In this document: positions 3,629 to 24,000 of the stretch, one piece after another | Layout of the letters: each line of letters opens with the position of its first letter | Numbering within the stretch: position 1 is the first letter of the stretch | Assembly: GCF_045310485.1 (NCBI RefSeq) | Contig: NZ_JBEWZH010000006.1 | Coordinates: 38,785 to 62,784 of the forward strand | Direction of reading: 5' to 3' | Origin: Aquirufa salirivi | GTDB lineage: Bacteria > Bacteroidota > Bacteroidia > Cytophagales > Spirosomataceae | DNA length: 24,000 nt | Program-made: the position numbers and the translations under genes | Notes under the pieces: model-generated | The model's database searches: none | Seen by the model: only the letters and a program-made list of their open reading frames with translations | What the model was told of the DNA's origin: nothing

Positions 3629-3658
3629 AATAGGCCTTAAGGGGCCTATTCCTTTTTT
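3629..3658 (+). terminator. Intrinsic-terminator-like hairpin between sucB and lpdA
   Basis: 8-bp stem AATAGGCC / GGCCTATT (3629-3636 / 3643-3650) with a 6-nt loop, followed by CC-TTTTTT (3653-3658). It lies 8 nt after the sucB stop and 11 nt before the lpdA ATG. Confidence 0.45.
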
Positions 3659-3668
3659 CCATTGCCTT

Positions 3669-5075: not shown

Positions 5076-5076
5076 T

Positions 5077-5430: not shown

Positions 5431-5627
5431 AGTAATAAGGGTTTAATGGATTAAGGAATGGTATACAAAAGGGTAGAATTATTTCGTTGATAATGAAATG
5501 TGACAAAGTTAAAAAACTTGTCAAACACATAGTCTTACAAAATTCACCTCCAAGAACTTGATTTTTTTTTAAATTTCAATCAAAGACGGAGAATTGTTTC
5601 AAAACATATTCCTATTCAATAATTGAG

Positions 5628-5635
5628 TAAATTTG
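5628..5635 (+). promoter_or_regulatory. Candidate Bacteroidota -7 promoter box (TAAATTTG) for the sialidase gene
   Basis: Matches TAnnTTTG and ends 18 nt upstream of the ATG at 5654. No convincing -33 TTG was identified. Confidence 0.3.
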
Positions 5636-5653
5636 ATTTTATCGTTCTTCGTC

Positions 5654-6814: not shown

Positions 6815-6837
6815 AATTGCATTTTTTTGGCTAAGTC

Positions 6838-6880
6838 TAGCCAACGCTGTCAAGGTTTGGAACCTTGCCAGCGTTAGCTA
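6838..6880. terminator. Long imperfect hairpin between the convergent sialidase and MATE genes (probable bidirectional terminator)
   Basis: 20-nt arms 6838-6857 and 6861-6880 pair at 18 of 20 positions around the loop TGG. TTT follows on the + strand. Confidence 0.45.
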
Positions 6881-6973
6881 TTTAGCTCAAGAAATTTCAT
6901 GGAAGGCTTTCCTTAGCCAAACGAATTAAAACTCAAAAAATGTATAGTAAGTTGAAGACTATCAAGTTCTTGA

Positions 6974-8347
6974 TTAATCTTCCACTTGAAGTGAATCGAA
7001 ATCAATCACTTTGGTGCGGGCATAAAAACGCCAGGATAACAGTGCCGCTGAACAAATCAGGCTACACGTTAATCCAATCCAGATTCCAACAGCTCCTAAG
7101 TCACCATAAATACCTAAGTAATAACTTAAAGGTATCCCAACACCCCAATAAGAAATAACGGTTATTGCAGTGGGGATTTTGACATCTTGTAGTCCTCTTA
7201 GTAAGCCTAAAGAAACAGCTTGAATACCATCAAATAGTTGAAATATGGCCCCCCAAGTAACTAATGAAACAGCAATGACGATCACATCTGCTTCCTGCGT
7301 GTATCCACGTACCAACCATGGTTTGAAAGTAAACATAATAATAGCACAAATACCCATAAATAGAATCGAAAGAAGCAAGGCGGCATTTCCTGAAATAAAA
7401 ATCCCTGCTCGATTTTTCTCTCCAATATCTGTACCAACATGAATTCCTCCAGCTGCTGCTATGCCGGTGGCCATCATATACGTTAAAGATGCCATGTTGA
7501 TGGCCACAATATGTGCAGCTTGGGCAGTCGAGGAAATCCAACCCATCATTACCACAGCCATACCAAAGGTAGCTATTTCAAAAAATCCTTGGAATCCAGC
7601 AGGAATACCTACTTTTAAAATGGTCTTTTCCTGTACCCAAGTATGATGCTCAGAACCCATGTGAGCAAAATATTTAGTAAAAGAGGGAGATTTGAAGATG
7701 TATAAGCCTAGAGTAAGGGCCATAAAAATACGACAAAGCAAAGTAGAAATACCTGCCCCAAATAAACCCATGGCAGGAATGGGTCCTAAGCCATTGATGC
7801 AAATATGATTGCCAATCACATTTAAAACCAAGGCTATGATCGTGATGTTCATTGCAATACTCGTCCTTTTTAAGCCATCCGAAAAGCTCTTGAATGCCGC
7901 AAATAAAAATGTTGGAATAACAGAAATGGCAATCAACACCAAATAGGGTAGGGTTAACTCCTTATTAATGGCACTTTGTTGGAAAAGGTCATAATTCCAA
8001 CCAATAAGGGCAATAATAAAAATAGTTATTACTGAAAGGATTAAAGCTACTCGAATTCCTGCCCGCATTAAATTCCCACATTCAGCGTCCTTATTTTCCG
8101 CCACTGATTTAGAAATCATAGGTGAAATGATTTGTAAACAGATTAATCCAATAATGGCAATCGTAAAAAATATGGAGTTGGCCATTCCTGAAGCCCCCAA
8201 GCTTTCTGCCACTTGCGACTGCATTTGACCCACTTGGATGGTATCGGCTAAACCCATCAACATAACACCTAATTGTCCAATTACAATAGGTAAGGCTAAT
8301 TTGATCGTGCTTTTAATTTTACCTCCAAGGCTGACGTCCTGCATCAT
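6974..8347 (-). CDS. MATE family multidrug/sodium efflux transporter
   Basis: 457 aa and highly hydrophobic, with about 12 TM segments. MATE-like N-terminus (KLALPIVIGQLGVMLMGLADTIQVG). The ATG abuts the murA stop with no gap. Confidence 0.8.
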   Translation of the reverse strand: MMQDVSLGGKIKSTIKLALPIVIGQLGVMLMGLADTIQVGQMQSQVAESLGASGMANSIFFTIAIIGLICLQIISPMISKSVAENKDAECGNLMRAGIRVALILSVITIFIIALIGWNYDLFQQSAINKELTLPYLVLIAISVIPTFLFAAFKSFSDGLKRTSIAMNITIIALVLNVIGNHICINGLGPIPAMGLFGAGISTLLCRIFMALTLGLYIFKSPSFTKYFAHMGSEHHTWVQEKTILKVGIPAGFQGFFEIATFGMAVVMMGWISSTAQAAHIVAINMASLTYMMATGIAAAGGIHVGTDIGEKNRAGIFISGNAALLLSILFMGICAIIMFTFKPWLVRGYTQEADVIVIAVSLVTWGAIFQLFDGIQAVSLGLLRGLQDVKIPTAITVISYWGVGIPLSYYLGIYGDLGAVGIWIGLTCSLICSAALLSWRFYARTKVIDFDSLQVED

Positions 8348-9655
8348 TTAGATTCGAATGATTTCTGCTCCTAAGGCATTTAATCGAGTATCAATATTTT
8401 GATATCCTCGGTCGATTTGCTCAATATTATCAATGATGGACGAGCCTGTTGCAGACATAGCAGCGATTAATAAGGATACACCGGCACGAATATCGGGAGA
8501 CGACATGCGTATTCCTTTTAGGTTTTGCTTTCTGTCGAAACCAACCACCGTAGCCCGGTGAGGATCACAAAGAATGATTTGAGCACCCATTTCAATTAAT
8601 CGGTCAACAAAGAAAAGTCGACTTTCAAACATTTTTTGGTGTATCAATACCGTTCCTTTAGCTTGAATGGCAGTCACTAAAATAATCGATAGTAGATCTG
8701 GCGTAAAACCCGGCCATGGATGATCTGAAATGGTCAGCATAGAACCATCAATGAAGTTTTCTAATTCATAATGTTCTTGAGCCGGTACATATATATCATC
8801 TCCACGAAACTCTAGTTTGATTCCTAGTTTGCGGAAAACATCTGGAATGATTCCTAATTCAGGAATTTTACAATTTTTGATGGTGATTTCTGACTGAGTC
8901 ATCGCAGCCATTCCAATGAATGAACCAATTTCGATCATGTCAGGTAACATGGTATGCTCGGTGCCTCCAAGAATTTCAACTCCTTCTATGGTCAATAGGT
9001 TGGAGCCGATACCTGAGATTTGGGCTCCCATACGGTTCAACATCTTACATAATTGTTGAATGTAAGGTTCGCAGGCGGCATGGTAAATGGTCGTGGTACC
9101 TTTTGCTAGAACGGCAGCCATCAGAATATTAGCTGTTCCAGTAACTGAAGCTTCATCCAATAACATATAGGCACCCGTTAAGTGAGAAGCATCTACTTCG
9201 TAAAACCCTCCATCTTCGGCACTATAATTGAATTTTGCACCTAATTTCATGAACCCCGTAAAGTGAGTATCCAATCTTCTACGACCAATTTTATCTCCGC
9301 CTGGTGAAGGAATACGTCCTTTTTTGAAACGGGCCAATGTCGGTCCTAATAACATCACCGATCCACGAAGGGCTGCTGCTTTAGCTTTGTATGTTTCAGA
9401 TTCTAAGTAGTCAATATTGACCTGAGAGGCATCAAATTCAACGCTAGATTCACTTAAACGACGAATTTTTACACCCATGTCGCTCAATAAATCAATTAAT
9501 TGATTGACATCACGGATGTTAGGAATATTATGAATGGTGACAGGTTCAGCAGTTAATACTACGGCACAAAGAATTTGTAATGCTTCGTTTTTTGCACCTT
9601 GAGGAGTAATTTCCCCTGACAATTTTCTGCCACCTGTTACTTTAAATGAGGCCAT
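8348..9655 (-). CDS. murA: UDP-N-acetylglucosamine 1-carboxyvinyltransferase
   Basis: N-terminus MASFKVTGGRKLSGEITPQGAKNEAL matches the MurA pattern including the active-site Lys (GAKNEAL). The start is set to the ATG at 9655 rather than the track's TTG at 9664. The active-site loop reads PGGDKIGRRRLDTH. Confidence 0.92.
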   Translation of the reverse strand: MASFKVTGGRKLSGEITPQGAKNEALQILCAVVLTAEPVTIHNIPNIRDVNQLIDLLSDMGVKIRRLSESSVEFDASQVNIDYLESETYKAKAAALRGSVMLLGPTLARFKKGRIPSPGGDKIGRRRLDTHFTGFMKLGAKFNYSAEDGGFYEVDASHLTGAYMLLDEASVTGTANILMAAVLAKGTTTIYHAACEPYIQQLCKMLNRMGAQISGIGSNLLTIEGVEILGGTEHTMLPDMIEIGSFIGMAAMTQSEITIKNCKIPELGIIPDVFRKLGIKLEFRGDDIYVPAQEHYELENFIDGSMLTISDHPWPGFTPDLLSIILVTAIQAKGTVLIHQKMFESRLFFVDRLIEMGAQIILCDPHRATVVGFDRKQNLKGIRMSSPDIRAGVSLLIAAMSATGSSIIDNIEQIDRGYQNIDTRLNALGAEIIRI

Positions 9656-9664
9656 AAGGGTCAA

Positions 9665-10321
9665 TTATTTTTTATGATTTCTTGGATTGAAATTCCGATT
9701 GTTTCTGAAGTTTTTTCTGTAATTATTTCCACCACGGTTATTACTTGGGCCGTTTGGATATTCAGGTGCATTGTATGCATTCCGGGCATTATTGGCTACT
9801 TTGGCATGACCTAAACCTTCTTGAGACAATTCATCAACAATAGAACCTAAAAGGTTTTCAGACATTTCTTTGATGTTTTGCCAAATGACCTGATCGTCTA
9901 CCGTGTCTTTATTCCAAGTAACATAAAAACCTTTCATTAAACGAGCAATGTAGGCAACTAGGATTTTTTTATCCTCCATTTTTTGTTCGGCAATAGCCCG
10001 AAGAATTAACAATTCTACGTTACGACCATAATGTTTGAACTTCAAATGGTGTTGGTTGTAATTGACTTTTTTCGGTGCTTTACCTACTGATTCAGGTGAG
10101 GGAGGAGGGTAAGGTCCTTGTACATCCAATTGGAAGTTGGACATGATGTACAAGTCATCCCAAAGTTTTTTGGAATAATCCTGACTATTATCCTTCATCC
10201 CCGGATGTATCTGTTTCATGAGTTCAATCATGAGGAAAGCATATTTGGTTCTTTTCTCTCGATCTTGAATCGTCAGAATGTAGTTGACCAATTTTTGTAC
10301 ACTAGACCCGTATTCTTTCAT
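9665..10321 (-). CDS. DUF4290-family protein with an Asn/Arg-rich C-terminal tail
   Basis: 218 aa. The position immediately upstream of murA is typical of Bacteroidota DUF4290 genes. The C-terminal low-complexity segment is NNRGGNNYRKNFRNNRNFNPRNHKK. Family assignment is from memory of the synteny, not from a search. Confidence 0.65.
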   Translation of the reverse strand: MKEYGSSVQKLVNYILTIQDREKRTKYAFLMIELMKQIHPGMKDNSQDYSKKLWDDLYIMSNFQLDVQGPYPPPSPESVGKAPKKVNYNQHHLKFKHYGRNVELLILRAIAEQKMEDKKILVAYIARLMKGFYVTWNKDTVDDQVIWQNIKEMSENLLGSIVDELSQEGLGHAKVANNARNAYNAPEYPNGPSNNRGGNNYRKNFRNNRNFNPRNHKK

Positions 10322-12296: not shown

Positions 12297-13736
12297 ATGC
12301 AGGGATTATCACTCAAAATTTCTCAGCAACAGCGCCTTTCTCCACAACAAATTCAGTTTGTTAAATTGCTTCAAATACCTACTGCAGAATTGGCAGCTAG
12401 GATCGAGGAGGAATTGGAGGAGAATCCGGCTTTGGAAGAAGGTGTAGAAATTCGGGACTCGGATGAATTCGATGAAAAGGAAAGAGAGACTGTCGAGGAT
12501 TTAGAGCGGGAGGAATTGGAGATTGGCGATTATTTACAAGATGATTATGCGGGCTATAAAATGGCTGGCGATTCTTATGATTTCAATGAGGAGTCAAAGG
12601 AAAGACCTATGGCTACCGCGGCTAGTGCAGAGGAATATTTGTTGATGCAAATAGGTTTTGTGTTAAAAGATGAGCGGGAAGAAATGATTGCCCATCAATT
12701 GATAGGTTCCCTAGAAGAGGATGGTTATTTGAGAAGGAATATTGAAAGTATTGTCAATGATTTAGCTTTCACCCAGGGATTTAATACCGATTTTGTGGAG
12801 GTTGAAAATATATTGAAAAAAATCCAGGCATTAGATCCAGCGGGGATTGGGGCGAGAGATTTGCAAGAATGTTTATCCATTCAATTGCATCGACGAGAGT
12901 CAGACCACCCTACTTGTTTATTGGCTATTCGTTTGATTGATGAGTACTTTGAGGAGTTTTCAAAAAAGCATTTTGTTCAGTTGCAGCAAAAATTAGGTAT
13001 AGATGAAAGTGAATTAAAAAAGGCTATTAACCTAATCAAGCGCCTAAACCCTAAACCAGGGGGGGCAGAAGGAGGAAATTTAGCGCCATATTTACAACCC
13101 GATTTTGTCGTGACCAATCAACATGGAAAATTGGATATTAAGTTGAATGGAAAAAATGCCCCTGAACTACGAGTTAGTAAATCATTCCAGGAGATGTTAC
13201 AAACCTATGATCAAGGAAATAAGCAGCAAAAAGAGATTAAAGAGGCTGTCACCTTTATCAAACATAAATTAGATGCCGCTTCTTGGTTTATACAAGCCAT
13301 TCAACAAAGGCAAGGGACATTGCTGAAAACGATGCATAGTATTGTGACTCAACAATACGATTTCTTTCTGACGGGAGATGATTCAAGTTTGAAGCCGATG
13401 AAGATGAAGGAAATAGCGGCATTGATTGAGATGGATGTTTCCACGGTTTCTAGGGTTGTTTCTGCGAAGTCGGTACAAACAGATTTTGGTATATACCCTT
13501 TAAAGTATTTCTTTTCTGAAGGAATTACTCATGAATCTGGGGAGGATGTTTCTACGAGAGAAGTGAAAAATATATTGAGGGATATCATTGAACAAGAACC
13601 TGCACATGAGCCTTATCCAGATGAAACCTTAGAATTACTTTTAGCGGAAAAGGGCTTTGTGGTCAAACGCCGTACCGTTGCTAAATACCGAGAGCAACTG
13701 GGTATACCGGTAGCGAGACTTAGAAAGAAATTATAA
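12297..13736 (+). CDS. rpoN: RNA polymerase sigma-54 factor
   Basis: Gln/Leu-rich region I (LKISQQQRLSPQQIQFVKLLQ), an acidic region II, and a C-terminal HTH plus RpoN box (RRTVAKYREQLGIP). Confidence 0.93.
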   Translation: MQGLSLKISQQQRLSPQQIQFVKLLQIPTAELAARIEEELEENPALEEGVEIRDSDEFDEKERETVEDLEREELEIGDYLQDDYAGYKMAGDSYDFNEESKERPMATAASAEEYLLMQIGFVLKDEREEMIAHQLIGSLEEDGYLRRNIESIVNDLAFTQGFNTDFVEVENILKKIQALDPAGIGARDLQECLSIQLHRRESDHPTCLLAIRLIDEYFEEFSKKHFVQLQQKLGIDESELKKAINLIKRLNPKPGGAEGGNLAPYLQPDFVVTNQHGKLDIKLNGKNAPELRVSKSFQEMLQTYDQGNKQQKEIKEAVTFIKHKLDAASWFIQAIQQRQGTLLKTMHSIVTQQYDFFLTGDDSSLKPMKMKEIAALIEMDVSTVSRVVSAKSVQTDFGIYPLKYFFSEGITHESGEDVSTREVKNILRDIIEQEPAHEPYPDETLELLLAEKGFVVKRRTVAKYREQLGIPVARLRKKL

Positions 13737-13784: not shown

Positions 13785-14126
13785 CTACCTTTCTTTGAGA
13801 GTTTTTAATATTCTTGCAATAAGGTAATAGATAGATTTTGCTTCAGCAAATACAGTAGGCTCAACATGTAAATTGATTGATTCTAGCAATTCAAGCCAAT
13901 AAATGGTTTCATTTATTTCTTTTTGTGCAATACTAAGTTTATGAATAAAATCTGCTTTTGATTCAGCATGCTGAGCTTCTCGAACCATTGCTCCAACACT
14001 AGTACCAGACTTTAATAATTGATTTGTCAAAGTATATTCGCGATTTGATTCTTGAATTGCTTTGCAAACCGATATGATGGATTTAGCAAATTCAAATGTT
14101 TTAAATTTTAGGATATTGTTTTTCAT
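13785..14126 (-). CDS. Four-helix-bundle protein (23S rRNA intervening-sequence protein family)
   Basis: 113 aa, all-helical. Family-typical motifs are LTNQLLKSGTSVGAMVREAQHAESKADFIHKLSIAQKEINETIYWLELL. It is transcribed opposite to both neighbours. Confidence 0.75.
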   Translation of the reverse strand: MKNNILKFKTFEFAKSIISVCKAIQESNREYTLTNQLLKSGTSVGAMVREAQHAESKADFIHKLSIAQKEINETIYWLELLESINLHVEPTVFAEAKSIYYLIARILKTLKER

Positions 14127-14339: not shown

Positions 14340-15119
14340 ATGTCTTCTTACCACTTTCTCAGCCTTAGTCAATTGAATGGAGTTTGGACAATCCATTTAA
14401 AACGTCCAGAAGTGTACAATGCATTAAATGCAGGTTTGATTCATGAGATTCGAGATGTAGCTGAAAAAGCCAAGGCTTCCGAATCTGCTCGAGTTTTGGT
14501 CATTACAGGAGATGGAAAAGCATTTTGCTCTGGGGCCGATTTAAAGTCAGGAGCCAGTGATTCAGATTTAGGAGCGGTATTGCGTGCGACATATAATCCG
14601 ATGATTTTGGCATTAAGAGGATTGGATAAGCCGGTCATTGGGGCAATTAATGGTCCTGCAGCTGGAGCGGGATGTTCTTTGGCATTAGCCTGTGACTACA
14701 TAATAGCGAAGGAAGGAGCATATTTTGCGGAGTTATTTGTGCAGATAGGTTTGACTTTAGATGCGGGGAGTACAGCCTTTTTAATGCAGTCATTAGGTTA
14801 TCATAAGGCATTTGAGTTAGCTGCAACGGCAAAAAAAATCTCAGCCAATGAAGCAAAAGTATGGGGATTAGTGGCAGAAGTGGTTTCAGAAGAAAATTGG
14901 GAGAAACGGGTCCAGACTATTGGAGATGAATTTGCCCAACGACCGACCTTGGCCTTAGCCCTGATAAAAAGAGAATTACAAAGGGCTCACCATCAGGATT
15001 TAGCAACCGTTTTAGAAATGGAAGCAGAAGCACAGCGACAAGCCGGGTATTCCAAAGATTTCAAAGAAGGTGTTACTTCATTTCTTGAGAAACGTGCGCC
15101 TAAATTTGTAGGCAAGTGA
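14340..15119 (+). CDS. Enoyl-CoA hydratase/isomerase (crotonase superfamily)
   Basis: 259 aa. Crotonase oxyanion-hole motifs are GKAFCSGADLK and INGPAAGAGCSLALACD. Substrate specificity cannot be assigned. Confidence 0.85.
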   Translation: MSSYHFLSLSQLNGVWTIHLKRPEVYNALNAGLIHEIRDVAEKAKASESARVLVITGDGKAFCSGADLKSGASDSDLGAVLRATYNPMILALRGLDKPVIGAINGPAAGAGCSLALACDYIIAKEGAYFAELFVQIGLTLDAGSTAFLMQSLGYHKAFELAATAKKISANEAKVWGLVAEVVSEENWEKRVQTIGDEFAQRPTLALALIKRELQRAHHQDLATVLEMEAEAQRQAGYSKDFKEGVTSFLEKRAPKFVGK

Positions 15120-15278: not shown

Positions 15279-15293
15279 CTTAAATTAGATTGG

Positions 15294-15333
15294 ATAGCCT
15301 GTGAATCATTGATTTACAGGCTATTTTGATTTT
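15294..15333 (+). terminator. Rho-independent terminator after tRNA-Arg
   Basis: 14-bp stem (15294-15307 / 15311-15324, one G-U) with loop ATT, followed by TTTGATTTT. It also faces the 3' end of the convergent nucleotidyltransferase gene. Confidence 0.6.
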
Positions 15334-15385: not shown

Positions 15386-16579
15386 TCATTCTTTTTTAAT
15401 TAATCGTTTTAGTAACAAAAAACTAGAATTTAAAAAACCCGAGAATGAATAAGCATTTGGATAATGATCCATTCGTTTTAATGTTTTAAAATATTTTAGA
15501 TAGACTATTATATGTTTGAAATAAGCGAAATCTTTATCTTGAAATTGGGTTGTTAAATATAAATGTCTTAACGTTAAAGCTCTATTACTACCCCAGTAGG
15601 AGGCTTTTTCCCATTCCTTAACGATTAAATCAATTTTAGAGCAATCAAAGTTATCCAAGTAATTATCTAAAATGGGCGGTAATTTGTAATCTAAATAAGA
15701 TTTCAAGATGGATAAAGCATTTTTGAATGCTGTTGTTAATCTGTAATCATCAACTAGTGATATAACTAATTCCCAATTGATTTTTTTATCATATTGATAC
15801 ATGAATGCATGAAAGTCTTGAATGTGTCTTAGTCTAAACCAAGATTCTTTTCCTCCATGGTGTGCTAATAACATCCAAAATAAGCCTTCTGAATTAAGCT
15901 GTTGAGTTTCAATGCCATTAAATTTCAATTTTTCGGTTAAATCAAATACTCGATCTATTAATGGTTTTTTCTCTTGATACTTTTGATAAAAAAAGTGCTG
16001 AAATAAATCCCAATGAAAATCTAGATTTATGATTCCTTTTTGTAAATGAATTTCATTGTGTAAACTTTGATTGACAATTAACTCTTTTAAATCTTCAGGA
16101 AGAATATTTAGATGGCTAAGATTAGGTGAATTGATTCTGTAACCATCTTGAAGTAAAATTTCTAATCCTTGGATAAGATGTTTTTTTTCAATTAGAACAT
16201 CTAAATCTGAAGTAGTTCGTACTTGTTTGTTTTGATATATCCCTTGAATCAAGATATTTCCCTTTAATACCAATAAGGGAATCTGATGTTCTGAAAATAG
16301 TTTTAAAAGTCGAGTTGTCTCCGCGGCATATTGCAAATTTTTAACAACTTGCTGAGCCATAAATAATTTCACCTCAGTTCGGATGCTCTCAGCCATGAAT
16401 TTTTCCTTTCTTTCATAGGAAAATATAAGCGCTTGAATTCCGTGATAACGATACAATTTTGATAATCTACCCGTATCGTAGGGTAAATCAGTAAAAATAG
16501 GTGCAAATCCTTCCTGTTCAAATTGATTTGTGATTGCCTGGATAAGTATGTCTAATTCGGGGGAAAACTCTTTTTTCAT
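15386..16579 (-). CDS. Nucleotidyltransferase-family protein (PF14907-like), putative lasso-peptide tailoring enzyme
   Basis: About 397 aa. It shows the pattern seen in 'uncharacterised nucleotidyltransferase' proteins: LLVLKGNIL...RTTSDLDVLI...DFHWDL. The start is set to the ATG at 16579, which overlaps the ABC stop in TGATG. Family call is by recollection of the motif pattern. Confidence 0.6.
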   Translation of the reverse strand: MKKEFSPELDILIQAITNQFEQEGFAPIFTDLPYDTGRLSKLYRYHGIQALIFSYERKEKFMAESIRTEVKLFMAQQVVKNLQYAAETTRLLKLFSEHQIPLLVLKGNILIQGIYQNKQVRTTSDLDVLIEKKHLIQGLEILLQDGYRINSPNLSHLNILPEDLKELIVNQSLHNEIHLQKGIINLDFHWDLFQHFFYQKYQEKKPLIDRVFDLTEKLKFNGIETQQLNSEGLFWMLLAHHGGKESWFRLRHIQDFHAFMYQYDKKINWELVISLVDDYRLTTAFKNALSILKSYLDYKLPPILDNYLDNFDCSKIDLIVKEWEKASYWGSNRALTLRHLYLTTQFQDKDFAYFKHIIVYLKYFKTLKRMDHYPNAYSFSGFLNSSFLLLKRLIKKE

Positions 16580-18342
16580 CACACCAGTTGTTGGTCATAT
16601 AGTTGTTTGAATAGGCCATTCTTGTTTTTTAACTCATGAAAGCTTCCCTTTTCTACAATTTTGCCTTCATCCATGACATAGATATAATCAGCTAGTTTTA
16701 GGTTGTAAAGTCGATGTGTAATAATAATGGTCGCTCTATGAGCAGCTATTTTTTTAAAATTTTGAAATATGGTTGCTTCTGAAATGGCATCCAATGCACT
16801 AGTGGGTTCATCTAAGACAATGAGATGAGCTGGTCTATAAAAAGCTCTAGCGATGGCTAATTTCTGCCATTGGCCTCCACTGATCTGTTCGCCACCTGCA
16901 AAAATTTTCCCTAATCTCGTCTCATATGATTGTGGAAGTTGTTGGATGAATTCGTCAGCGTCCGCTAATCGTGCAGCTTCTTGGATTGCCTCCATATCGA
17001 TAGGCTGATCTAAATTGCCCATGGCAATAATTTCTTTGATTTGTAAAAAGTATTTTTCAAAATCTTGAAAGACAAATAGGCTGTTTTGCTTAAATTGGTC
17101 AGCATTTAATTCCTGATAGCGATGACCATTCCAAGTGATTTCACCTTGACTTGGACTATATAATCCAGCTAGTAGTTTGATTAAAGTCGTCTTTCCTGCT
17201 CCATTCATCCCTACAATAGCAATAGTTTGACCTATCTGACAGGTTAGATTAATCTGTTCTAATGTTTTTCGAGTTGATCCTGGATATTGGAAATCTACAT
17301 GCTTAATTTCTAGGCCTTGTCCTGTATTTTCCATTGGTATTGTTCCATGGATAGGTTTATCCCGATCCAATGTGAGGAATTGGTTAAAATCTTGTATGAA
17401 TCGACGCTGTTGGAATAACTGGAGTAATGAATTTAATAGATTTTTTAGGGTACTTTGAATTCTTTGAATACCCTGGATATATACGATGAATAAACTTATA
17501 CCAATGGATTGTGTAAAAGCCATTTGAGCTAGTTCGTACAGAATATAAAACAAGATGGACAATTCAAGTAGTTCTGTCAAAAAACCTAAACTGATTAACT
17601 TCATTTGAAGCGAATTCTTTTTAAGGAAAATGAAGGTTTTTATTTCCTTTAAACGACTTAGAAGATAAGTTCCAAAATTGAGTGTTCGCAATTCTTTGGC
17701 ATAAGCGCTGCCTGTCAGTAAATGTATTAAATAATAAGACTCTCTTTCTTTGCTAACTAATTGTTTATCAAGTCGATGTAAAGCAAAACCTGAATACCAT
17801 TTGATCATGCTTAATGGAGCAGCGACAAATAATATTAACCACGCATAAGTTTTGATAAGGGTAAAAAAATAGAACATTAGTACGGTAAAAGTCAACAATT
17901 GCGTCAAGAATGATTTGAAGTTTTGGTAAATCAAAGGCAGATTTTGTTGTGATTGTTGCTGCGCTATATGTAAGGAGTCTTGATATTGGGCTTCTTCGTA
18001 ATACGTATAGGGTATTGCGATAGCCTTGTTTAAAATTTTATAAACGATTTCATTCGTTATTTTTTGCTCTTGAATAAATGAAATGTAGTTATCTACGTTA
18101 GTTAATAATGATTGAAAAATTTGTAATACAATCAATAGTGCAATCCAAGTTAAAATAGAATTAAAACTAGTCTGAGAAAGGTGGTTAAAATGATCAAATA
18201 TGTTTTTAGTTACAAATAAAAGTGCCGTTGGAATCAAAGCTGAAATCACAGCTATTAGAAACTGGAATAGCGTATTCTTCTTATTTAATCCAAATAATAG
18301 CTTATAAACCAGTAAGAAATCTCGAATGATGTTGAATTTCAA
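16579..18342 (-). CDS. ABC transporter, fused permease/ATPase (lasso peptide exporter, D-type)
   Basis: 587 aa. The N-terminal TM domain is followed by Walker A GMNGAGKTT, signature ISGGQWQK, Walker B LIVLDEPTS and H-loop ITHRL. Only a TTG start (18342) is available; the first in-frame ATG is codon 156. Confidence 0.85.
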   Translation of the reverse strand: MKFNIIRDFLLVYKLLFGLNKKNTLFQFLIAVISALIPTALLFVTKNIFDHFNHLSQTSFNSILTWIALLIVLQIFQSLLTNVDNYISFIQEQKITNEIVYKILNKAIAIPYTYYEEAQYQDSLHIAQQQSQQNLPLIYQNFKSFLTQLLTFTVLMFYFFTLIKTYAWLILFVAAPLSMIKWYSGFALHRLDKQLVSKERESYYLIHLLTGSAYAKELRTLNFGTYLLSRLKEIKTFIFLKKNSLQMKLISLGFLTELLELSILFYILYELAQMAFTQSIGISLFIVYIQGIQRIQSTLKNLLNSLLQLFQQRRFIQDFNQFLTLDRDKPIHGTIPMENTGQGLEIKHVDFQYPGSTRKTLEQINLTCQIGQTIAIVGMNGAGKTTLIKLLAGLYSPSQGEITWNGHRYQELNADQFKQNSLFVFQDFEKYFLQIKEIIAMGNLDQPIDMEAIQEAARLADADEFIQQLPQSYETRLGKIFAGGEQISGGQWQKLAIARAFYRPAHLIVLDEPTSALDAISEATIFQNFKKIAAHRATIIITHRLYNLKLADYIYVMDEGKIVEKGSFHELKNKNGLFKQLYDQQLV

Positions 18343-18366
18343 TAGTGAACAGATTTGTTTGTTTTA

Positions 18367-18374
18367 CAAAGCTA
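18367..18374 (-). promoter_or_regulatory. Candidate -7 box (TAGCTTTG on the minus strand) for the ABC/nucleotidyltransferase operon
   Basis: The reverse complement matches TAnnTTTG, 24 nt upstream of the TTG start at 18342. Confidence 0.3.
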
Positions 18375-18437
18375 TCTTATGTCATTGATTTATCTACAAT
18401 CATGATAGATATTCATTCATATATTTGATATTATCAT

Positions 18438-18445
18438 TAGTTTTG
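18438..18445 (+). promoter_or_regulatory. Candidate -7 box (TAGTTTTG) for the kinase-sulfotransferase-B1-B2 operon
   Basis: Matches TAnnTTTG and ends 22 nt upstream of the ATG at 18468. A second match, TATATTTG, lies at 18420-18427. Confidence 0.3.
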
Positions 18446-18467
18446 TAGAATAAATTTAACCTGTTCC

Positions 18468-19385
18468 ATGTATAAATACGTTGCATTGGGAATGCAAATT
18501 CAATCTGAAATTGAAATTCCAGGCTTGTTTCCTTTTGACTTCCAAGAAAGTGGGGACACCGTTATTGTCAAAATAGGTACTGTACCAGAGACTCTTCAAA
18601 ATGAAATATTAGAAGTAAAGCCTTTTTCTTTCTTCAACGAGCGTGAGTTTATATTTCATATTCCAGAGGCAGCAAAATTTTATATTACGAATGGGAATAA
18701 AATACTAATAGAGCCATTAACGGATAATTTGGATGAAGTGTTTTTTTATCTATACACTGGTGTATTGGCTACTGTATTATTTCAAAAAAATATACTTCCT
18801 TTTCATGTTTCAGGTGTAGTTCTTAAAAACAACACAGTTTTGCTTTTTGCAGGACACCAGAGAGCAGGGAAGTCTTCTACTTCTATCATGCTTCAAAATA
18901 GAGGTTATTTGCCATTTACAGATGATACGGCTGTATTACAAGTTAAAAATGGACTTTGTTATGCAACTTCCTCATACCCGATTATTCGGGCAATGGAACG
19001 AACTTTAGAGAAGCAATCGGTCTATTCAGATGACGAAATAACGCCGAAAATTAAAGAAGGCTTTAAGTTTGGAATAAATTTTCATAAAAAGTTTACTCCT
19101 GAGCAGTTACCCGTTAGTGGTATCGTTTTTTTAAGTGAAGATGGGGATGAGGTGGAGATTTCGCCAATGAAATCAACAGAAGCCATTAAATTGTTAAAGT
19201 TTAATATTTACAGAAAACAGTGGGTCAATGGTATGAAAAAAGAACTTCTTGAATTTCAGACGATTTCACAAATTGCTCAGAGTAAATTACATTTTTTTTC
19301 AGTTAAGCGCCCTTGGGAATCCGATAGTTTTGAGATTTTAGCACAAGCCATAGAAGATCAAGTCATTCATCAAATTGGAAAATAA
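18468..19385 (+). CDS. HPr kinase-like (HprK-related) peptide kinase
   Basis: 305 aa. The HprK C-terminal-domain pattern is HVSGVVLKNNTVLLFAGHQRAGKSSTSIMLQNRGYLPFTDDTAVL, comprising a P-loop GxxxxGKS and a downstream DD. It is adjacent to lasso B1/B2 genes, as in paeninodin-type clusters. Confidence 0.72.
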   Translation: MYKYVALGMQIQSEIEIPGLFPFDFQESGDTVIVKIGTVPETLQNEILEVKPFSFFNEREFIFHIPEAAKFYITNGNKILIEPLTDNLDEVFFYLYTGVLATVLFQKNILPFHVSGVVLKNNTVLLFAGHQRAGKSSTSIMLQNRGYLPFTDDTAVLQVKNGLCYATSSYPIIRAMERTLEKQSVYSDDEITPKIKEGFKFGINFHKKFTPEQLPVSGIVFLSEDGDEVEISPMKSTEAIKLLKFNIYRKQWVNGMKKELLEFQTISQIAQSKLHFFSVKRPWESDSFEILAQAIEDQVIHQIGK

Positions 19386-20226
19386 AAAGAATATAGTTTG
19401 GCTTGCTTCTTATCCTAAATCTGGGAATACTTGGTTTAGGAGCTTTATTTCAGCACTTAGAAATAAAGGAGAAGTCGATATCAATGCTATTTCTACTGAA
19501 GGGATATTTTCTCAAAAAAGAGGGTTGGAAGAATGTTTGGATTTGGATGCAGATGAAATACCTGTGTCTAAAATGGATCAATTTAAGCGCATATCTTTTG
19601 TGCACCAATCAAATACTTCTGCCAAGAAGTGTTTTGTGAAAATCCATGATTTGTATTCCATGTCAAAAATTGACCATCAACCTATTGTACCAGAAGAGTC
19701 TACATTGGCTGCTATCTACTTTGTGAGAAATCCGCTGGATGTAACTATTTCAATGGCAAATCATAATGGACAAACCTTGGATGAGACCATTGCCAAAGTG
19801 GTGTGTAATGAACATGCAAATTTGGTTCGATCAGAAAAACATGCGCAAGATCAGTTTCAGCAATATTTAGGCACATGGAATATGCATGTGGAAAGTTGGA
19901 AAAAGGTCACAGCTTTTCCCGTAATTTTTATTCGATATGAAGACATGAAAAAGAATCCCCAAGATTCATTTTCACAAGCTCTGAAACAGATTGAATATGA
20001 GGCAACTGAAGAAGAAATACAATTAGCTTTAGAAGCTTCCCAATTTGAAAAATTAAAAAATCAAGAAGTTGAGTTTGGATTTAGAGAAAAACCAAAAGCC
20101 TGTAAGTCATTTTTTAATAAAGGAGAGGTTGGTCAATGGAAAGAGCAATTAAATCAAGTACAAATCAATAAAATAAGACAATTTAATGAACCTATGATGC
20201 GAGAATTCGGATATTGGGAAGAATAA
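19375..20226 (+). CDS. PAPS-dependent sulfotransferase (cytosolic SULT-like fold)
   Basis: 283 aa. It has a 5'-phosphosulfate-binding loop SYPKSGNTW, a RNPLDV...H segment and a 3'-phosphate-binding motif FNKGEVGQWKEQL. A TTG start at 19375 is forced, because the PSB loop begins at residue 12 and the first ATG is codon 67. It overlaps the kinase gene by 11 nt. Confidence 0.8.
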   Translation: MENKKNIVWLASYPKSGNTWFRSFISALRNKGEVDINAISTEGIFSQKRGLEECLDLDADEIPVSKMDQFKRISFVHQSNTSAKKCFVKIHDLYSMSKIDHQPIVPEESTLAAIYFVRNPLDVTISMANHNGQTLDETIAKVVCNEHANLVRSEKHAQDQFQQYLGTWNMHVESWKKVTAFPVIFIRYEDMKKNPQDSFSQALKQIEYEATEEEIQLALEASQFEKLKNQEVEFGFREKPKACKSFFNKGEVGQWKEQLNQVQINKIRQFNEPMMREFGYWEE

Positions 20227-20231
20227 TAAAT

Positions 20232-20522
20232 ATGGAAAATATGGAAAACATGACATACGTTTTTAATGAAGAAAGAGTATTATTAACCCAATTAGGAGAA
20301 GAAGGAGTTTTATATGATATTCAATCCAATGAATATTTTACCTTAAATGAAACCTTGTTTTATATCGTAGATGGGATTAAAAAGGGACTAACTTTGGTAG
20401 AAATCGGCGAAATATTAATGAGCAAATACGATATCGATGAGAATTTGTGTTATCAAGAAATAGCCAAAGCTATCCAACAATTGGTAGAAAAAAATATCCT
20501 ATTAGAACAAAATAATGCTTAG
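20232..20522 (+). CDS. PqqD-family RiPP recognition element (lasso B1)
   Basis: About 96 aa with the PqqD pattern: EEGVLYDIQSNEYFTLNETLFYIVDGIKKGLTLVEIGEILMSKYDIDEN...QQLVEKNILLE. The start is set to the ATG at 20232 (the track used TTG at 20214). Its end overlaps the B2 start by 8 nt. Confidence 0.72.
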   Translation: MENMENMTYVFNEERVLLTQLGEEGVLYDIQSNEYFTLNETLFYIVDGIKKGLTLVEIGEILMSKYDIDENLCYQEIAKAIQQLVEKNILLEQNNA

Positions 20523-20940
20523 GGTAATTAGTCTTTTTTTAAAATTAAGTTTTCGTAACCAGAGTCTTATTTTGGGGACAATCATCCTATCTGTTTATTG
20601 TTATTTTTTATTTAAAATAAAGCCGACCTGGATTAGATTTGGCCGGATTCACCAAGTTAAATTGGAAACGGGAAAAATTGATTGGAGACTAGTTAAGGAT
20701 ATTCGGGAGTCAATTCGATTAGTAAGTAAAAGATTACCTCTTCATTTAGTTTGTCGCCATGAAGCTTACATTGCTAAAATATGGTTGAATTATTATAAAA
20801 TCCCCTACAAGATTTATATTGGATTCAAATATGGGGATGATAAAAGCATTCTGGGACATGCTTGGACAGAAGTGCAAGGCAGACAAATCACGGGGTTTTG
20901 TGATCCCCAGGATTATGTGATTCAGGCTATATATACTTGA
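20515..20940 (+). CDS. Lasso peptide leader peptidase B2 (transglutaminase-like Cys protease)
   Basis: 141 aa. The candidate catalytic Cys is in LVCRHEAYIAKIWL, the His in GHAWTEV, and a downstream Asp in CDPQD. The size and motif order match split-B lasso proteases. Confidence 0.75.
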   Translation: MLRVISLFLKLSFRNQSLILGTIILSVYCYFLFKIKPTWIRFGRIHQVKLETGKIDWRLVKDIRESIRLVSKRLPLHLVCRHEAYIAKIWLNYYKIPYKIYIGFKYGDDKSILGHAWTEVQGRQITGFCDPQDYVIQAIYT

Positions 20941-20961
20941 AATAGGAGTTTAGAGATTGAA

Positions 20962-20986
20962 CATTGATTTCAATAATAAATCAATG
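20962..20986. terminator. Weak AT-rich hairpin between the convergent B2 gene and the 50-aa ORF
   Basis: 9-bp stem CATTGATTT / AAATCAATG with a 7-nt loop. There is no clear T-tract on either strand. Confidence 0.25.
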
Positions 20987-20991
20987 ATTCA

Positions 20992-21144
20992 TTAGTAACC
21001 CAACATATGATCAGAATCAAGTAAGAATTTGAGTGGATTCAAATCGATTATTTCTTCGGTATTCCACTTTTCTAATTTAGGACTTTCCCATTTTTTGAGA
21101 TCGGGAGAATTCGTGTCATCATTCAATAATACTTTCTTCTTCAT
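20992..21144 (-). CDS. Unannotated 50-aa ORF with a lasso-leader-like motif (candidate second precursor or leader-bearing peptide)
   Basis: Hand translation: MKKKVLLNDDTNSPDLKKWESPKLEKWNTEEIIDLNPLKFLLDSDHMLGY. ATG at 21144-21142 and TAA at 20994-20992. WESPKL fits the Y/WxxPxL RRE-recognition motif. The motif spacing is shared with the ORF at 23844-24000. It lies 67 nt downstream of the SET gene on the same strand. It is too short for the supplied ORF track. Confidence 0.4.
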   Translation of the reverse strand: MKKKVLLNDDTNSPDLKKWESPKLEKWNTEEIIDLNPLKFLLDSDHMLGY

Positions 21145-21211
21145 TTTTCAATTGTTAGAGCTACATGGGGAAATGAAATAATAAATTATCTAACTTCTAT
21201 ATAATGTACAT

Positions 21212-21712
21212 TTATTTGTATTTCAATGGACTTATTTTTTTCATTAGATTTCTGTAAAGCCAATAGTTTTCTCCATAAGAAACAAAAATTTCTTCATTTG
21301 GGGGGATATCATCTCTTGCAATAATGGTCATAGTTTCTAGACGAAAATCAAGCTTTTGTATCGTGTTGGGTTTATTAGCATGGTTGTATAATGAACCATT
21401 CCCCAACGCTAAATAAACTTTGTTTCCATGTGTATTACATACTTCGCACTTGCAACTTTGATTAGCCCAAATGTAATCTAACATGGTAGGTTCCGATAAA
21501 TAGAATGAGCGCCATTTTAAAGCCAATAGTCTGGCTTCTTCAATTAACTCCCCTTGTTTGATTAGTTCATTGGAAAAAACACCAAATCCATGAATTGAAG
21601 ATTGACTTAATCTAATTTTAGATGATATACCAGCTATATCATATTTAGGTTCAGAAATTTCACAAGGATTTAACACGGTAAATATTTTTTGTTTGAAGTA
21701 ATAAATATACAA
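21212..21712 (-). CDS. SET-domain protein (putative lysine N-methyltransferase)
   Basis: SET motifs appear in order: GFGVFS (GxG), NHANKPN (NHxxxPN) and EEIFVSYGENYW (ExxxxY). There is a Cys-rich insert, CKCEVC. No ATG start is available: the options are TTG at 21712 or GTG at 21676, and the first ATG is codon 77. It lies 34 nt downstream of the cyclase stop. Confidence 0.7.
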   Translation of the reverse strand: MYIYYFKQKIFTVLNPCEISEPKYDIAGISSKIRLSQSSIHGFGVFSNELIKQGELIEEARLLALKWRSFYLSEPTMLDYIWANQSCKCEVCNTHGNKVYLALGNGSLYNHANKPNTIQKLDFRLETMTIIARDDIPPNEEIFVSYGENYWLYRNLMKKISPLKYK

Positions 21713-21746
21713 AAAATGAACTTTCTTTATTCAATACAAAAATCGC

Positions 21747-23630
21747 CTAAACAAATTTGTTTGGGTGAGATTGGATAAATAGCGCACAACTTATTGACCT
21801 TGTTAGATAAATGGAGTTATTGTATGCATTTTTGTTTCTAGGATCTTTAATGATGCTAGCAAGGCTATCTTTCATTTTTTGAATATCCAGATAATAGGTA
21901 ATCGCCTTATTTTGATCGAAAGACTCTAATAATTGTTCAAACTCTTTTGCTTCATTTGCGATTCTAAGCGAAAGATCAGTAGCCTGTCTACCTTTCTTTT
22001 TTTGGTGAATTAAATCATCTAACAATCTACCTTTCATGGCTGTTTTTATTAACCACTTTGGTGTGTCATATCGGTAATAGTATTCGTTGGGAACTGATAG
22101 GCAAAATTCTACTAAATTTTTATCGGCACTCGGATCAAAGGTTTTGATATCAAAATAGTAGGAAAGGTCATGCCATACGGCTCCAATTTTACTGAATTGA
22201 GGATTAATAAATTGAATTTGTTTTTTTTCATTTGGAACTAATTGACGAAAATAGGGATCATGGCCAGATTCCAACATCCTTTTTTCTAAATCAATATCTT
22301 CAGCAAATTTGGAGTTTATGTGAGAATAAGAATCCCAAATTTTGGATTGATCAATACCCATGTATTTTTTAAATTTTTGGGACATGAGCCCAATGTAAGA
22401 GGATATTGTTAGCTTTTCATTGCTATCAAAGCCAATAAGTTGTTTAATTTTTTCTTTGACGGAATTTTTTTCTGTATAACCCGTCCAAGAAATAGTTGAG
22501 TTTCCAAATTGACCTATCAACATGGTGTCAATTCCCTCTTTTCCGGCATTTCGATAAATTTCATAGATCCAAAAAAGATTTCCTGCTGCATGCAAAGGGC
22601 TATGATGCAGATCAGTCATCTCTTTGAGATTTTGAACAATGGAAACCTGCTCACTCCGAATTAATTGTAAATCTACATTACCTAAAAATTGAGCAGTTGG
22701 TATGGTTAGGTATGATTCATTGGTGGCAGTTAGTGGATTAAATAAATCAGAAGTATCCTCTTTTGGAATGGATGTAAATGCTGTTAAAGACTTTCCTTCT
22801 TTTTTTAAGATTTCAGATGCTACCGTGGTGATGGTACTGGAATCAAATCCTGAACTTAATTGGCTTCCGATTTTATTTGCTCCTTGTATTCTATTTCTTA
22901 CCGACTGTTCCAATTTTGCATTAAAGCGAGTCACATATTCCATTTCAGTATTCAGCTGTAGTACAGGAGTGTTTTCAGCTATCCAATATCTTTTGAACTC
23001 AGTTTTGCCATTAATAATTTTTAAGTAATGCGCAGGAAGTAAAAAATGAATGTCTTCAAAGGCTGTTTCATCATTTAATCTATCCCAAACTGTCAAAATG
23101 CCAGCTATATAGCTTTCGTTAATTTTTAGATGGCTTTTGTCAAAATCAAGAAGTCCTTTAAGTAAAGAAGAGAAAGCTATATAATCATGTCCTTTTCTAT
23201 AATAGATCGTACCAATTCCAAATGGATCTCTGGCAAGGAATAATTCTTTAGAATTACCATTCCAAATAACTAAAGTCCATTCACCGTCAATTTTTTTTAC
23301 AAAATCATCTCCTAGCAATAAATATAATTTTAGGAGAAGTATGTTGTTAGGAATAGACTCATCTATTTTCATTGACAAAAGGGTAAATAAGTCCTTTCGG
23401 TTGTCAATTCGACCAGTGGAAATAATCTGGCAATTATTTTCTGAGTATAGTAATTCTTGAGCTTGAAATTCTGTATGGAGAGATCTGGTTTGTACACCAA
23501 TGTGACTACCATGGTCTACTGAATCTGATATTAGGCTAGGGGCAAATTCACTTAAGGAATTTTGTATGATGGGAAATAGATCAGAATTAGTATCTGGGTC
23601 AAATGATACTAAACCGTACAAAATATTCAT
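21747..23630 (-). CDS. Lasso peptide macrolactam synthetase (asparagine synthetase B-like, C protein)
   Basis: 627 aa. It has an AsnB-like two-domain layout but the N-terminus MNILYG lacks the Cys2 glutaminase nucleophile. It carries a PP-loop variant, SSGFDSS. It is clustered with B1/B2/ABC genes. Confidence 0.85.
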   Translation of the reverse strand: MNILYGLVSFDPDTNSDLFPIIQNSLSEFAPSLISDSVDHGSHIGVQTRSLHTEFQAQELLYSENNCQIISTGRIDNRKDLFTLLSMKIDESIPNNILLLKLYLLLGDDFVKKIDGEWTLVIWNGNSKELFLARDPFGIGTIYYRKGHDYIAFSSLLKGLLDFDKSHLKINESYIAGILTVWDRLNDETAFEDIHFLLPAHYLKIINGKTEFKRYWIAENTPVLQLNTEMEYVTRFNAKLEQSVRNRIQGANKIGSQLSSGFDSSTITTVASEILKKEGKSLTAFTSIPKEDTSDLFNPLTATNESYLTIPTAQFLGNVDLQLIRSEQVSIVQNLKEMTDLHHSPLHAAGNLFWIYEIYRNAGKEGIDTMLIGQFGNSTISWTGYTEKNSVKEKIKQLIGFDSNEKLTISSYIGLMSQKFKKYMGIDQSKIWDSYSHINSKFAEDIDLEKRMLESGHDPYFRQLVPNEKKQIQFINPQFSKIGAVWHDLSYYFDIKTFDPSADKNLVEFCLSVPNEYYYRYDTPKWLIKTAMKGRLLDDLIHQKKKGRQATDLSLRIANEAKEFEQLLESFDQNKAITYYLDIQKMKDSLASIIKDPRNKNAYNNSIYLTRSISCALFIQSHPNKFV

Positions 23631-23707
23631 TGTGGAAATAGGTTATGGATAAAAAATATCACGTTTGTGTTTGCATGATTCAATACTTGTATCTAGGCAT
23701 ATTTAGC

Positions 23708-23742
23708 AACAATTTACAAGTATTTAATACTTCTAAATTGTT
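23708..23742. promoter_or_regulatory. 35-nt near-perfect palindrome upstream of the cyclase gene
   Basis: AACAATTTAcAAGTATT-T-AATACTTcTAAATTGTT: 16 of 17 arm positions are complementary, centred on 23725. It lies between the stop of the edge ORF (23844) and the cyclase ATG (23630). Confidence 0.4.
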
Positions 23743-23843
23743 TATATTTAATATAATTGAGTACAGATTTGATGTTCTTATGAATGAAACTAATACTATT
23801 TAACTCGATTCAAATGGAGCTAATGCGGGTTAAAAATCCTTTT

Positions 23844-24000
23844 TTATTGGTTATATGTTTTCACGCCACCGTCTACACCAACACCATATTTTAAGCCCAA
23901 ATTGACATATTCCCAAATGATGATTTGAGGGTCTATCCAATTCTTTTTTTCATAGGACAATTGAGAGTCTATTTTATTTGACTGTAGGGTAAAATGTTCA
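23844..24000 (-). CDS. Small or partial ORF ending in a lasso-compatible core (best precursor-peptide candidate); the frame is open to the window edge
   Basis: Hand translation from the window edge: EHFTLQSNKIDSQLSYEKKNWIDPQIIIWEYVNLGLKYGVGVDGGVKTYNQ*. TAA at 23846-23844. No in-frame ATG is visible. An in-frame TTG at 23960-23958 would give a 38-aa peptide. WIDPQI fits the Y/WxxPx(L/I) leader motif, and the core GLKYGVGVDGGVKTYNQ has Gly1 and Asp9. Confidence 0.4.
   Translation of the reverse strand, partial: EHFTLQSNKIDSQLSYEKKNWIDPQIIIWEYVNLGLKYGVGVDGGVKTYNQ

Follow-up and report, generated by a model that had tools for sequence, protein, structure and literature searches.

As stable scaffolds, lasso peptides have value for antibiotics and for the engineering of peptides; only a limited tailoring chemistry is known for them. 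We describe here a lasso-type gene cluster, that is, one for peptides that are made on the ribosome and modified after translation (RiPPs), located in a 24,000-nt stretch of DNA from Aquirufa salirivi (contig NZ_JBEWZH010000006.1, positions 38,785 to 62,784), hereafter the window. It associates the core lasso enzymes with a kinase, a sulfotransferase, a nucleotidyltransferase (NTase) and a SET-domain protein. The first three of these accessory genes are already known from lasso clusters. HprK-like kinases of paeninodin-type clusters (poly)phosphorylate the C-terminal Ser of linear precursors (PMC8498205), and the pseudomycoidin NTP-transferase PsmN adds hexoses to the phosphate; the idea of a modification acting as a lock for a short tail was also suggested for pseudomycoidin (PMC6993621). 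Sulfotransferase and nucleotidyltransferase genes were noted bioinformatically in lasso clusters of Firmicutes (PMC8498205, PMC4289311). A preliminary description of the window held that sulfotransferases in lasso clusters had been noted only in this way; no characterised sulfated lasso peptide was found in the open-access library searched. The same description held that SET-domain enzymes had not been linked to any RiPP pathway. This is too strong, because GigC, from the fungal epichloecyclin pathway, is a SET-domain Lys N-methyltransferase that mono- and dimethylates a conserved core Lys of a RiPP (PMC10540207). For bacteria and for lasso peptides the statement stands within the open-access library, in which we found no bacterial or lasso SET case, no report linking Aquirufa to lasso peptides and no characterised lasso peptide from Bacteroidota.

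The locus is a real lasso-peptide biosynthetic gene cluster of freshwater Aquirufa, a genus of Cytophagales (Bacteroidota), and very probably a functional one having the enzyme families assigned in Table 1. The cyclase C finds as its top match NF033535, 'lasso peptide isopeptide bond-forming cyclase' (E 5e-66); its N-terminus, MNILYG, is devoid of Cys2 and its PP-loop reads LSSGFDSS. The leader protease is split in two. B1 scores 43.3 bits with PF05402, for a gathering score of 23.4, and its top NCBIfam match is the lasso PqqD chaperone NF033536, below the cut-off of that model. B2 scores 37.2 bits with NF033537, over the cut-off of 33, and carries a Cys in LVCRHEA and a His in GHAWTEV. The match of the exporter to ABC_membrane is weak, its top NCBIfam matches being MsbA-type and bacteriocin exporters. 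The preliminary description had proposed a lasso-type RiPP cluster containing C, split B1/B2, an ABC exporter and four accessory enzymes, arranged in three transcription units in a Bacteroidota host. This picture is borne out. All the open reading frames (ORFs) that it named are where it placed them and belong to the families proposed, as judged from Pfam and NCBIfam matches, profiles and folds. The 627-aa protein falls among lasso cyclases and the 141-aa protein among B2 peptidases, and the genes occur together in related genomes.

Table 1. Positions of the features of the Aquirufa lasso cluster, in the window and in the orthologous locus L001 of A. ecclesiirivi.
Feature	Positions	Strand	Basis or remark
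Window: hairpin, 16-bp stem, then T-run	15292..15326	+	terminator scan
Window: PF14907 nucleotidyltransferase (NTase), 398 aa, last gene of the exporter-NTase unit	15386..16582	-	PF14907, E 1e-40
Window: ATP-binding cassette (ABC) exporter, lasso 'D', 587 aa, fused transmembrane and nucleotide-binding domains	16579..18342	-	PF00005, E 6e-30
Window: P-loop kinase of HprK/PEPCK fold, 305 aa, opening the kinase-sulfotransferase-B1-B2 unit	18468..19385	+	profile and fold
Window: cytosolic-family sulfotransferase, 3'-phosphoadenosine-5'-phosphosulfate (PAPS) type, 283 aa	19375..20226	+	PF00685, E 4e-29
Window: B1, PqqD-like leader-recognition element (RRE)	20214..20522	+	PF05402, E 5e-11
Window: B2, transglutaminase-like Cys leader peptidase, 141 aa	20515..20940	+	PF13471, E 2e-14
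Window: 50-aa class-2 precursor-like gene	20992..21144	-	leader KKWESPKLEKW, invariant LNPLKFL, conserved Asp
Window: minimal SET-domain methyltransferase, 154 aa	21212..21676 (ORF to 21712)	-	PF00856, E 7e-12
Window: lasso macrolactam cyclase C, 627 aa, Asn-synthetase-like	21747..23630	-	NF033535, PF00733, PF13537
Window: last class-1 precursor gene of the array, 3' part, ...KKNWIDPQIIIWEYVNLGLKYGVGVDGGVKTYNQ then stop	23844..24000	-	start codon just past base 24000
L001: adenosine-5'-phosphosulfate (APS) kinase	3645-4217		PF01583, E 5e-53
L001: precursor array	4947-9786
L001: precursor copy devoid of the W-x-x-P leader segment	6479-6634
L001: full-length orthologue of the window's edge precursor	9622-9786		core identical

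The kinase, sulfotransferase, B1 and B2 genes are carried by the + strand; the exporter and NTase genes, on the one hand, and the edge precursor, C, SET and 50-aa ORF, on the other hand, are carried by the - strand. Overlaps between neighbouring genes had been given as 1, 11 and 8 nt. Those of 11 nt (kinase and sulfotransferase) and 8 nt (B1 and B2) are as described; the first one measures 1 nt only when counted from the second-codon ATG and otherwise 4 nt, and a further overlap of 13 nt exists with the TTG start of B1. The cluster had also been taken to be confined to positions 15386 to 24000. This is not the case: judged from orthologous loci, it runs past base 24000, with about 13 precursor genes and an APS kinase gene beyond the edge. 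The content of this region is deduced from the 97%-identical locus of Aquirufa ecclesiirivi 50A-KIRBA (L001), whose cyclase is 97% identical to that of the window. There, the counterpart of the region beyond base 24000 holds 13 small precursor genes, preceded by the APS kinase gene. The array is made of tandem paralogues, several of them ~80-85 nt apart, and the copy without the W-x-x-P segment looks like a decayed paralogue. The gene at the edge of the window is the counterpart of the last member of the array. The same layout as in the window is found in three further Aquirufa loci (L001, L002 and L093). In L002 and L093, the APS kinase, the precursor array, C and SET follow one another on one strand, the kinase, sulfotransferase, B1 and B2 genes being on the other, and the exporter gene comes next. 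Six precursor genes stand before the cyclase gene and two after it in L002, and 13 stand before it in L093. An APS kinase gene is present within the orthologous or related clusters L001, L002, L093, L010 and L016/L017; its place is outside the span of the window.

The precursor peptides were compared by aligning the leaders of 29 precursors from all cluster types and by counting residues in 33 class-1 cores from three Aquirufa genomes. In the leaders, a Pro is invariant and a Trp three residues ahead of it is nearly so; by its sequence, this W-x-x-P is the aromatic-x-x-P recognition motif of lasso leaders. Class-1 precursors have in common a leader with W-x-x-P-x-[IL], a ring Asp that is invariant and a tail reading D-G-G-[S/T]-K-[T/A]-[Y/S], the pattern in L001 being KKNW[VI]SPEIxNWExxN[IL]E..GxGADGG[ST]KAYxx. 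The Asp, which would be the ring acceptor, lies 23-25 residues past the Trp. It is followed mostly by G-G at D+1 and D+2, by Ser or Thr at D+3 (20 of the 33 precursors), by Lys (21), Gln (6) or Arg (2) at D+4 and by Tyr (22) or Ser (8) at D+6. The tail beyond the Asp has 7-8 residues in 27 cases, and a hydroxyl residue is conserved 1-4 residues from the precursor C-terminus. At least one Lys is found in 28 of the 33 cores; when the tail Lys is swapped for Gln or His, a Lys is often present in the ring. A 7-residue ring is favoured because position 1, seven positions ahead of the Asp, is then occupied by G, A, S or T in 24/33 precursors. Thus, an X1-Asp7 ring is the most likely arrangement suggested by the sequences. 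A ring of 8 or 9 residues, in which position 1 would be mostly Asn or Glu, is less likely. For the window core GLKYGVGVD, a K1-D7 and a G1-D9 ring are both possible. We also considered the invariant tail Tyr as a pure plug or as a Tyr-only sulfation site. Both ideas lose ground with A. nivalisilvae, 8 precursors of which have Ser in place of Tyr; this alternation at D+6 argues that the position is conserved for its hydroxyl rather than for its bulk.

A second class of precursor is represented in the window by the 50-aa ORF. Its leader is related to that of class 1, and its counterparts adjoin the SET gene in L001 (one substitution) and in L002 (two paralogues); it is not found in L093. NCBIfam gives no family for either of the two window precursors, and the 50-aa ORF has no Pfam match either.

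The best explanation of these data, which we consider quite probable, is a lasso cluster with C, B1/B2, an exporter and four accessory enzymes working as follows. B1 would bind the W-x-x-P-x-[IL] leader motif and B2 would cleave the leader. C would then adenylate the invariant Asp and join it to the new N-terminus, most likely closing a 7-residue ring and leaving a tail of 7-8 residues, D-G-G-[S/T]-K-[T/A]-[Y/S]-x(1-4), whose functional groups are the likely targets of modification. The SET enzyme would N-epsilon-methylate Lys. The sulfotransferase, using PAPS made with the help of the APS kinase of the cluster, and the kinase would modify the hydroxyls of Tyr/Ser or Ser/Thr, and the NTase, where encoded, would act on the phosphate in the way known from pseudomycoidin. 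The groups added at K and Y/S may supply bulk and lock the short, Gly-rich tail in the small ring, and the ABC transporter would export the product. The individual sites are proposed tentatively, each of them being somewhat doubtful when taken alone: the tail or ring Lys for the SET enzyme, and the hydroxyls of D+6 Tyr/Ser and D+3 Ser/Thr for the sulfotransferase and the kinase. The complete proposal is more speculative. According to it, freshwater Cytophagales would produce libraries of very small lassos from ~13 precursors, the K-x-[Y/S] tails of which receive N-epsilon-methyl-Lys, O-sulfate and O-phosphate groups that constitute the steric lock in place of bulky side chains.

Several observations weigh against this scheme. 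The cyclase reaches 223 bits with NF033535, for a curated cut-off of 525, and the identity of the kinase, deduced from profile and fold without a curated family match, is the weakest call of the set. The precursor array and the APS kinase are observed in orthologous loci only. Five of the 33 class-1 cores have no Lys, and the core of the related cluster L004 has a Lys only at -1 or position 2. With a 7-residue ring, position -2 would be Glu or Gly in Aquirufa, and not the canonical Thr, which is found in L004. The preliminary description had pointed out that HprK-like kinases phosphorylate the C-terminal Ser of paeninodin-type precursors. An HprK-like kinase is present, but this rule fails for most precursors: only 4/33 class-1 precursors end in Ser, and the two precursors of the window end in Gln and Tyr. 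Class-2 peptides do not have an acidic residue at a consistent ring position. Finally, where the peptide is modified, how large its ring is and in which order the steps occur are all deductions, and the product itself is predicted from the genes.

Taken as a single sequence, the kinase has no Pfam match and nothing meaningful in the PDB, and HprK-related NCBIfam models match it weakly (E ~1e-3). A profile built from 26 homologues matches, across the Walker A and DD regions, HPr kinase/phosphorylase of known structure (2qmh and 1jb1; E 4e-4). The AlphaFold2 model (predicted local distance difference test, pLDDT, 92.7) retrieves PEPCK and HPr kinase folds with Foldseek at probability 1.0. Residues H113, S115, G134-K135-S136 (the Walker A GKS) and D152-D153 (DD) are invariant. 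For the sulfotransferase, the PAPS-binding motifs YPKSGNTW, RNPLDVTIS and KGEVGQWK and the catalytic His (KIHD) align with those of human SULT1B1, and relatives of the protein further include the glycopeptide phenol sulfotransferases Teg12, Teg14 and StaL. In Aquirufa, Leadbetterella and Emticicia alike, the gene of the sulfotransferase lies next to that of the kinase and overlaps it. The NTase, announced as PF14907-like and confirmed as such (Table 1), has a pol-beta-type SDLDVL motif (DxD) and finds no match among solved structures. It is an accessory, variably present tailoring gene and the least conserved of the accessory genes: it occurs in L001, L004, L016/L017 and L011 and is missing from two of the three other Aquirufa loci (L002 and L093), so that among these four Aquirufa loci only the window and L001 have it.

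Two related clusters contain additional genes. In the SET-less kinase-sulfotransferase cluster of Emticicia sp. TH156 (L012), six tandem genes for 173-175-aa proteins having the phage tail-collar domain PF07484 (4076-7880) lie directly upstream of the lasso cyclase gene. The locus of Cyclobacteriaceae YHN15 (L011) encodes two Asn-synthase-like cyclases, two HprK-like kinases, an NTase, a PrmA-like methyltransferase and a glycosyltransferase, and may correspond to two adjacent or nested lasso clusters.

The alternation of Tyr and Ser at D+6 fits a hydroxyl acceptor of any kind. This raises the possibility, which we regard as open to serious doubt, that the accessory enzymes act at other sites or on each other's products. 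In one variant, a phospho-hexose would be assembled on the D+6 Ser/Tyr by the kinase and the NTase, and the target of the sulfotransferase would be that sugar or a Ser/Thr; in another, the SET enzyme would methylate a ring Lys, or the precursor ahead of cleavage. Such variants agree with the attachment of hexoses to phosphate by PsmN (PMC6993621), with the cores that have Lys in the ring instead of the tail and with the fact that known lasso tailoring enzymes act mostly on linear precursors (PMC8498205). It should, however, be noted that, among proteins of solved structure, the sulfotransferase is nearest to phenol/aryl SULT1 enzymes and to glycopeptide phenol sulfotransferases. Moreover, since the two Aquirufa clusters that have no NTase keep both the kinase and the sulfotransferase, sulfation cannot depend on the NTase.

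With very short cores (14-16 aa) rich in glycine, the products might also be branched-cyclic, unthreaded peptides, or otherwise different from threaded lassos. We consider this unlikely. Lasso peptides of ~15 residues are known, the full B1/B2/C machinery is conserved, and the conserved bulky or modifiable K and Y/S residues are suitably placed as tail plugs. In favour of unthreaded products, the predicted tails of 7-8 residues are rich in Gly, class-2 peptides do not match the canonical ring, and pseudomycoidin devoid of its modifications was reported as not threaded (PMC6993621).

The SET-domain protein scores 46.1 bits with PF00856 (gathering score 22.4). It had been assigned to positions 21212-21712; the SET domain is there, but homologues and a GTG codon indicate that the protein starts at 21676. 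Its closest solved structure by sequence is vSET (1n3j, E 3e-12), and its AlphaFold2 model (pLDDT 76.6) retrieves vSET (TM-target 0.84), PFL0690c and S. pombe Set7 with Foldseek. The catalytic motifs YNHANKPN and FVSYG are invariant across the alignment. Lasso-associated SETs also have an N-terminal Cys, as well as an inserted CxCxxC. This insertion was considered as a marker of lasso SETs and rejected, a non-lasso sister clade carrying it too.

The genomic distribution of this SET follows that of lasso genes. All homologues at 64-95% identity come from Aquirufa-type clusters, and every SET at least 48% identical to that of the window and having sufficient flanking sequence adjoins lasso genes or a lasso-like precursor. 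Those found with lasso enzymes show four gene orders: that of Aquirufa and, for SETs at 48-53% identity, those of L004 (SET-NTase-B1-B2-C-precursor-kinase-680aa-P450-methyltransferase), L016/L017 (SET / NTase-APS kinase / kinase-SULT-Asp beta-hydroxylase / precursor-B2-B1-C) and L015 (SET / SULT-kinase / ABC). In L006, the contig ends shortly after an NTase fragment. In L013, the SET gene adjoins a lone lasso-type precursor (..IES, then GKSLQPAELSWAHS), with no lasso enzymes within ~9-10 kb. Around ~75 SET loci at most 42% identical (metagenomes and Pseudomonadota), no relative of B1, B2, the kinase or the sulfotransferase was found nearby, and a single weak Asn-synthase-like match was obtained (L084, E 2e-5). 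When the window is compared with L004 and L017, SET is 52-53% identical, whereas identity is 32% in the cyclase, 30-32% in the kinase, 33% in the sulfotransferase, 21-28% in B2 and 24-32% in the NTase. Between these distant clusters, SET is thus conserved above every core lasso enzyme. The kinase, sulfotransferase and B2 of the window are 40-51% identical to those of SET-less Emticicia and Leadbetterella clusters, closer than to those of L004/L017. Together with the high conservation of SET, this points to SET as a module that passes from one cluster to another. Judged from these comparisons, it behaves as a strongly constrained module that was moved between, or lost from, related lasso clusters. 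Such a pattern is hard to reconcile with a chance neighbour, and SET is likely to be a dedicated tailoring enzyme of the lasso pathway.

Some of these loci have further features. L017 contains an extra tailoring gene, for an Asp/Asn beta-hydroxylase (4813-5337; PF05118, E 3e-12). In L004, positions 15823-19922 encode a P450, a class I methyltransferase and a 680-aa protein without Pfam match, in which squalene-cyclase-like repeats were seen by eye. On four metagenome contigs without lasso genes (L019, L021, L024 and L025), SETs 35-42% identical to that of the window have the same CxCxxC insertion and neighbours that look virus-like by eye (nucleoside deoxyribosyltransferase-like protein, GMP reductase, many ORFs without family). 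These contigs hint that the SET found with lasso genes has a relative in viruses.

That SET is a passenger of virus-like ancestry, methylating a cellular or foreign protein, would fit its nearest non-lasso relatives on such contigs, a closest solved structure that is a viral histone methyltransferase, the Lys-less cores and the isolated SET of L013, but it is rather improbable, given that adjacency is kept in four gene orders and at least four Aquirufa genomes, that conservation of SET between clusters exceeds that of every core enzyme, that the neighbour in L013 is still a lasso-type precursor, and that the SET gene of the window follows that of the cyclase at 70 nt, on the same strand.

On the left side, GC content distinguishes the cluster (31-35%) from the upstream housekeeping genes, including rpoN (36-46%). 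The scan for promoters and terminators yielded one useful element only, the GC-rich terminator-like hairpin of Table 1, located in the interval that separates the 3' end of the NTase gene from the enoyl-CoA hydratase gene (14340-15119). This hairpin is a probable terminator of the low-GC cluster and, we infer, its left boundary. The sigma-70 scan found fewer promoter sites than in shuffled sequences, the sigma-70 consensus being ill-suited to Bacteroidota, and inspection by eye of the regions upstream of the precursor genes revealed no shared motif. Where the ends of B2 (+) and the 50-aa ORF (-) converge, an AT-rich inverted repeat (20945-20990; cattgattt / aaatcaatg, 7-nt loop), overlooked by the GC-biased scan, is a possible bidirectional terminator. 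Farther to the left, a gene for a 113-aa protein of the 23S rRNA-intervening-sequence family (13785-14126, - strand; PF05635, E 1e-20) is placed between rpoN (12297-13736) and the hydratase gene; its counterpart in L001 is a divergent copy of another size (128 aa).

With its SET-lasso association, its module of kinase, sulfotransferase and APS kinase and its array of 13 precursor genes, the locus is less a surprise in concept than a promising starting point for experiments. The cluster family points to Lys N-methylation by SET and to PAPS-dependent sulfation, neither of which we found described for lasso peptides. If true, this would give the first bacterial RiPP SET methyltransferase and a function of bacterial SET proteins outside the mimicry of host chromatin. 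With ~13 core variants per genome, the arrays form a natural substrate library that would let enzyme specificity be read directly, in a phylum untapped for lasso peptides. That post-translational groups may act as steric plugs of very small lassos is a testable idea.

Among known systems, the SET protein itself is best compared with vSET (PBCV-1 A612L) and other minimal SET Lys methyltransferases of ~120-150 aa, its best sequence and fold match, with which it shares NHxxxPN and SYG. It differs from vSET by the inserted CxCxxC segment, the N-terminal Cys and a context of peptide biosynthesis instead of chromatin. As in Epichloe festucae, where GigC is the example, a SET-domain enzyme resides here inside a RiPP cluster. 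The GigC pathway is, however, eukaryotic, yields a DUF3328-type cyclic peptide and has no lasso machinery, and the two SET proteins are likened by description. The sulfotransferase, as in the lasso clusters of Firmicutes and anaerobes, belongs to a kinase-containing cluster (PMC8498205, PMC4289311). Unlike in those clusters, its gene overlaps that of the kinase in Aquirufa and the cluster includes an APS kinase. In the psm cluster of Bacillus pseudomycoides, a kinase and an 'uncharacterised NTP transferase' with DxD are encoded beside an ABC transporter gene (PMC6993621). The NTase of the window (PF14907, SDLD) resembles PsmN by description only. The psm cluster has neither sulfotransferase nor SET, and the NTase is dispensable within Aquirufa. 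In overall organization, there is a likeness with the clusters of paeninodin (Paenibacillus dendritiformis), ThcoK and SyanK, which likewise have split B1/B2, C, an ABC exporter and an in-cluster HprK-like kinase (PMC8498205), and the paeninodin leader shows the same type of aromatic-x-x-P-x-L motif. Paeninodin-type kinases target a C-terminal Ser, whereas few Aquirufa precursors end in this residue. In addition, paeninodin has one precursor and no SET, and the Aquirufa host is from another phylum. The Aquirufa system functions in the manner of the paeninodin subtype without simply belonging to it.

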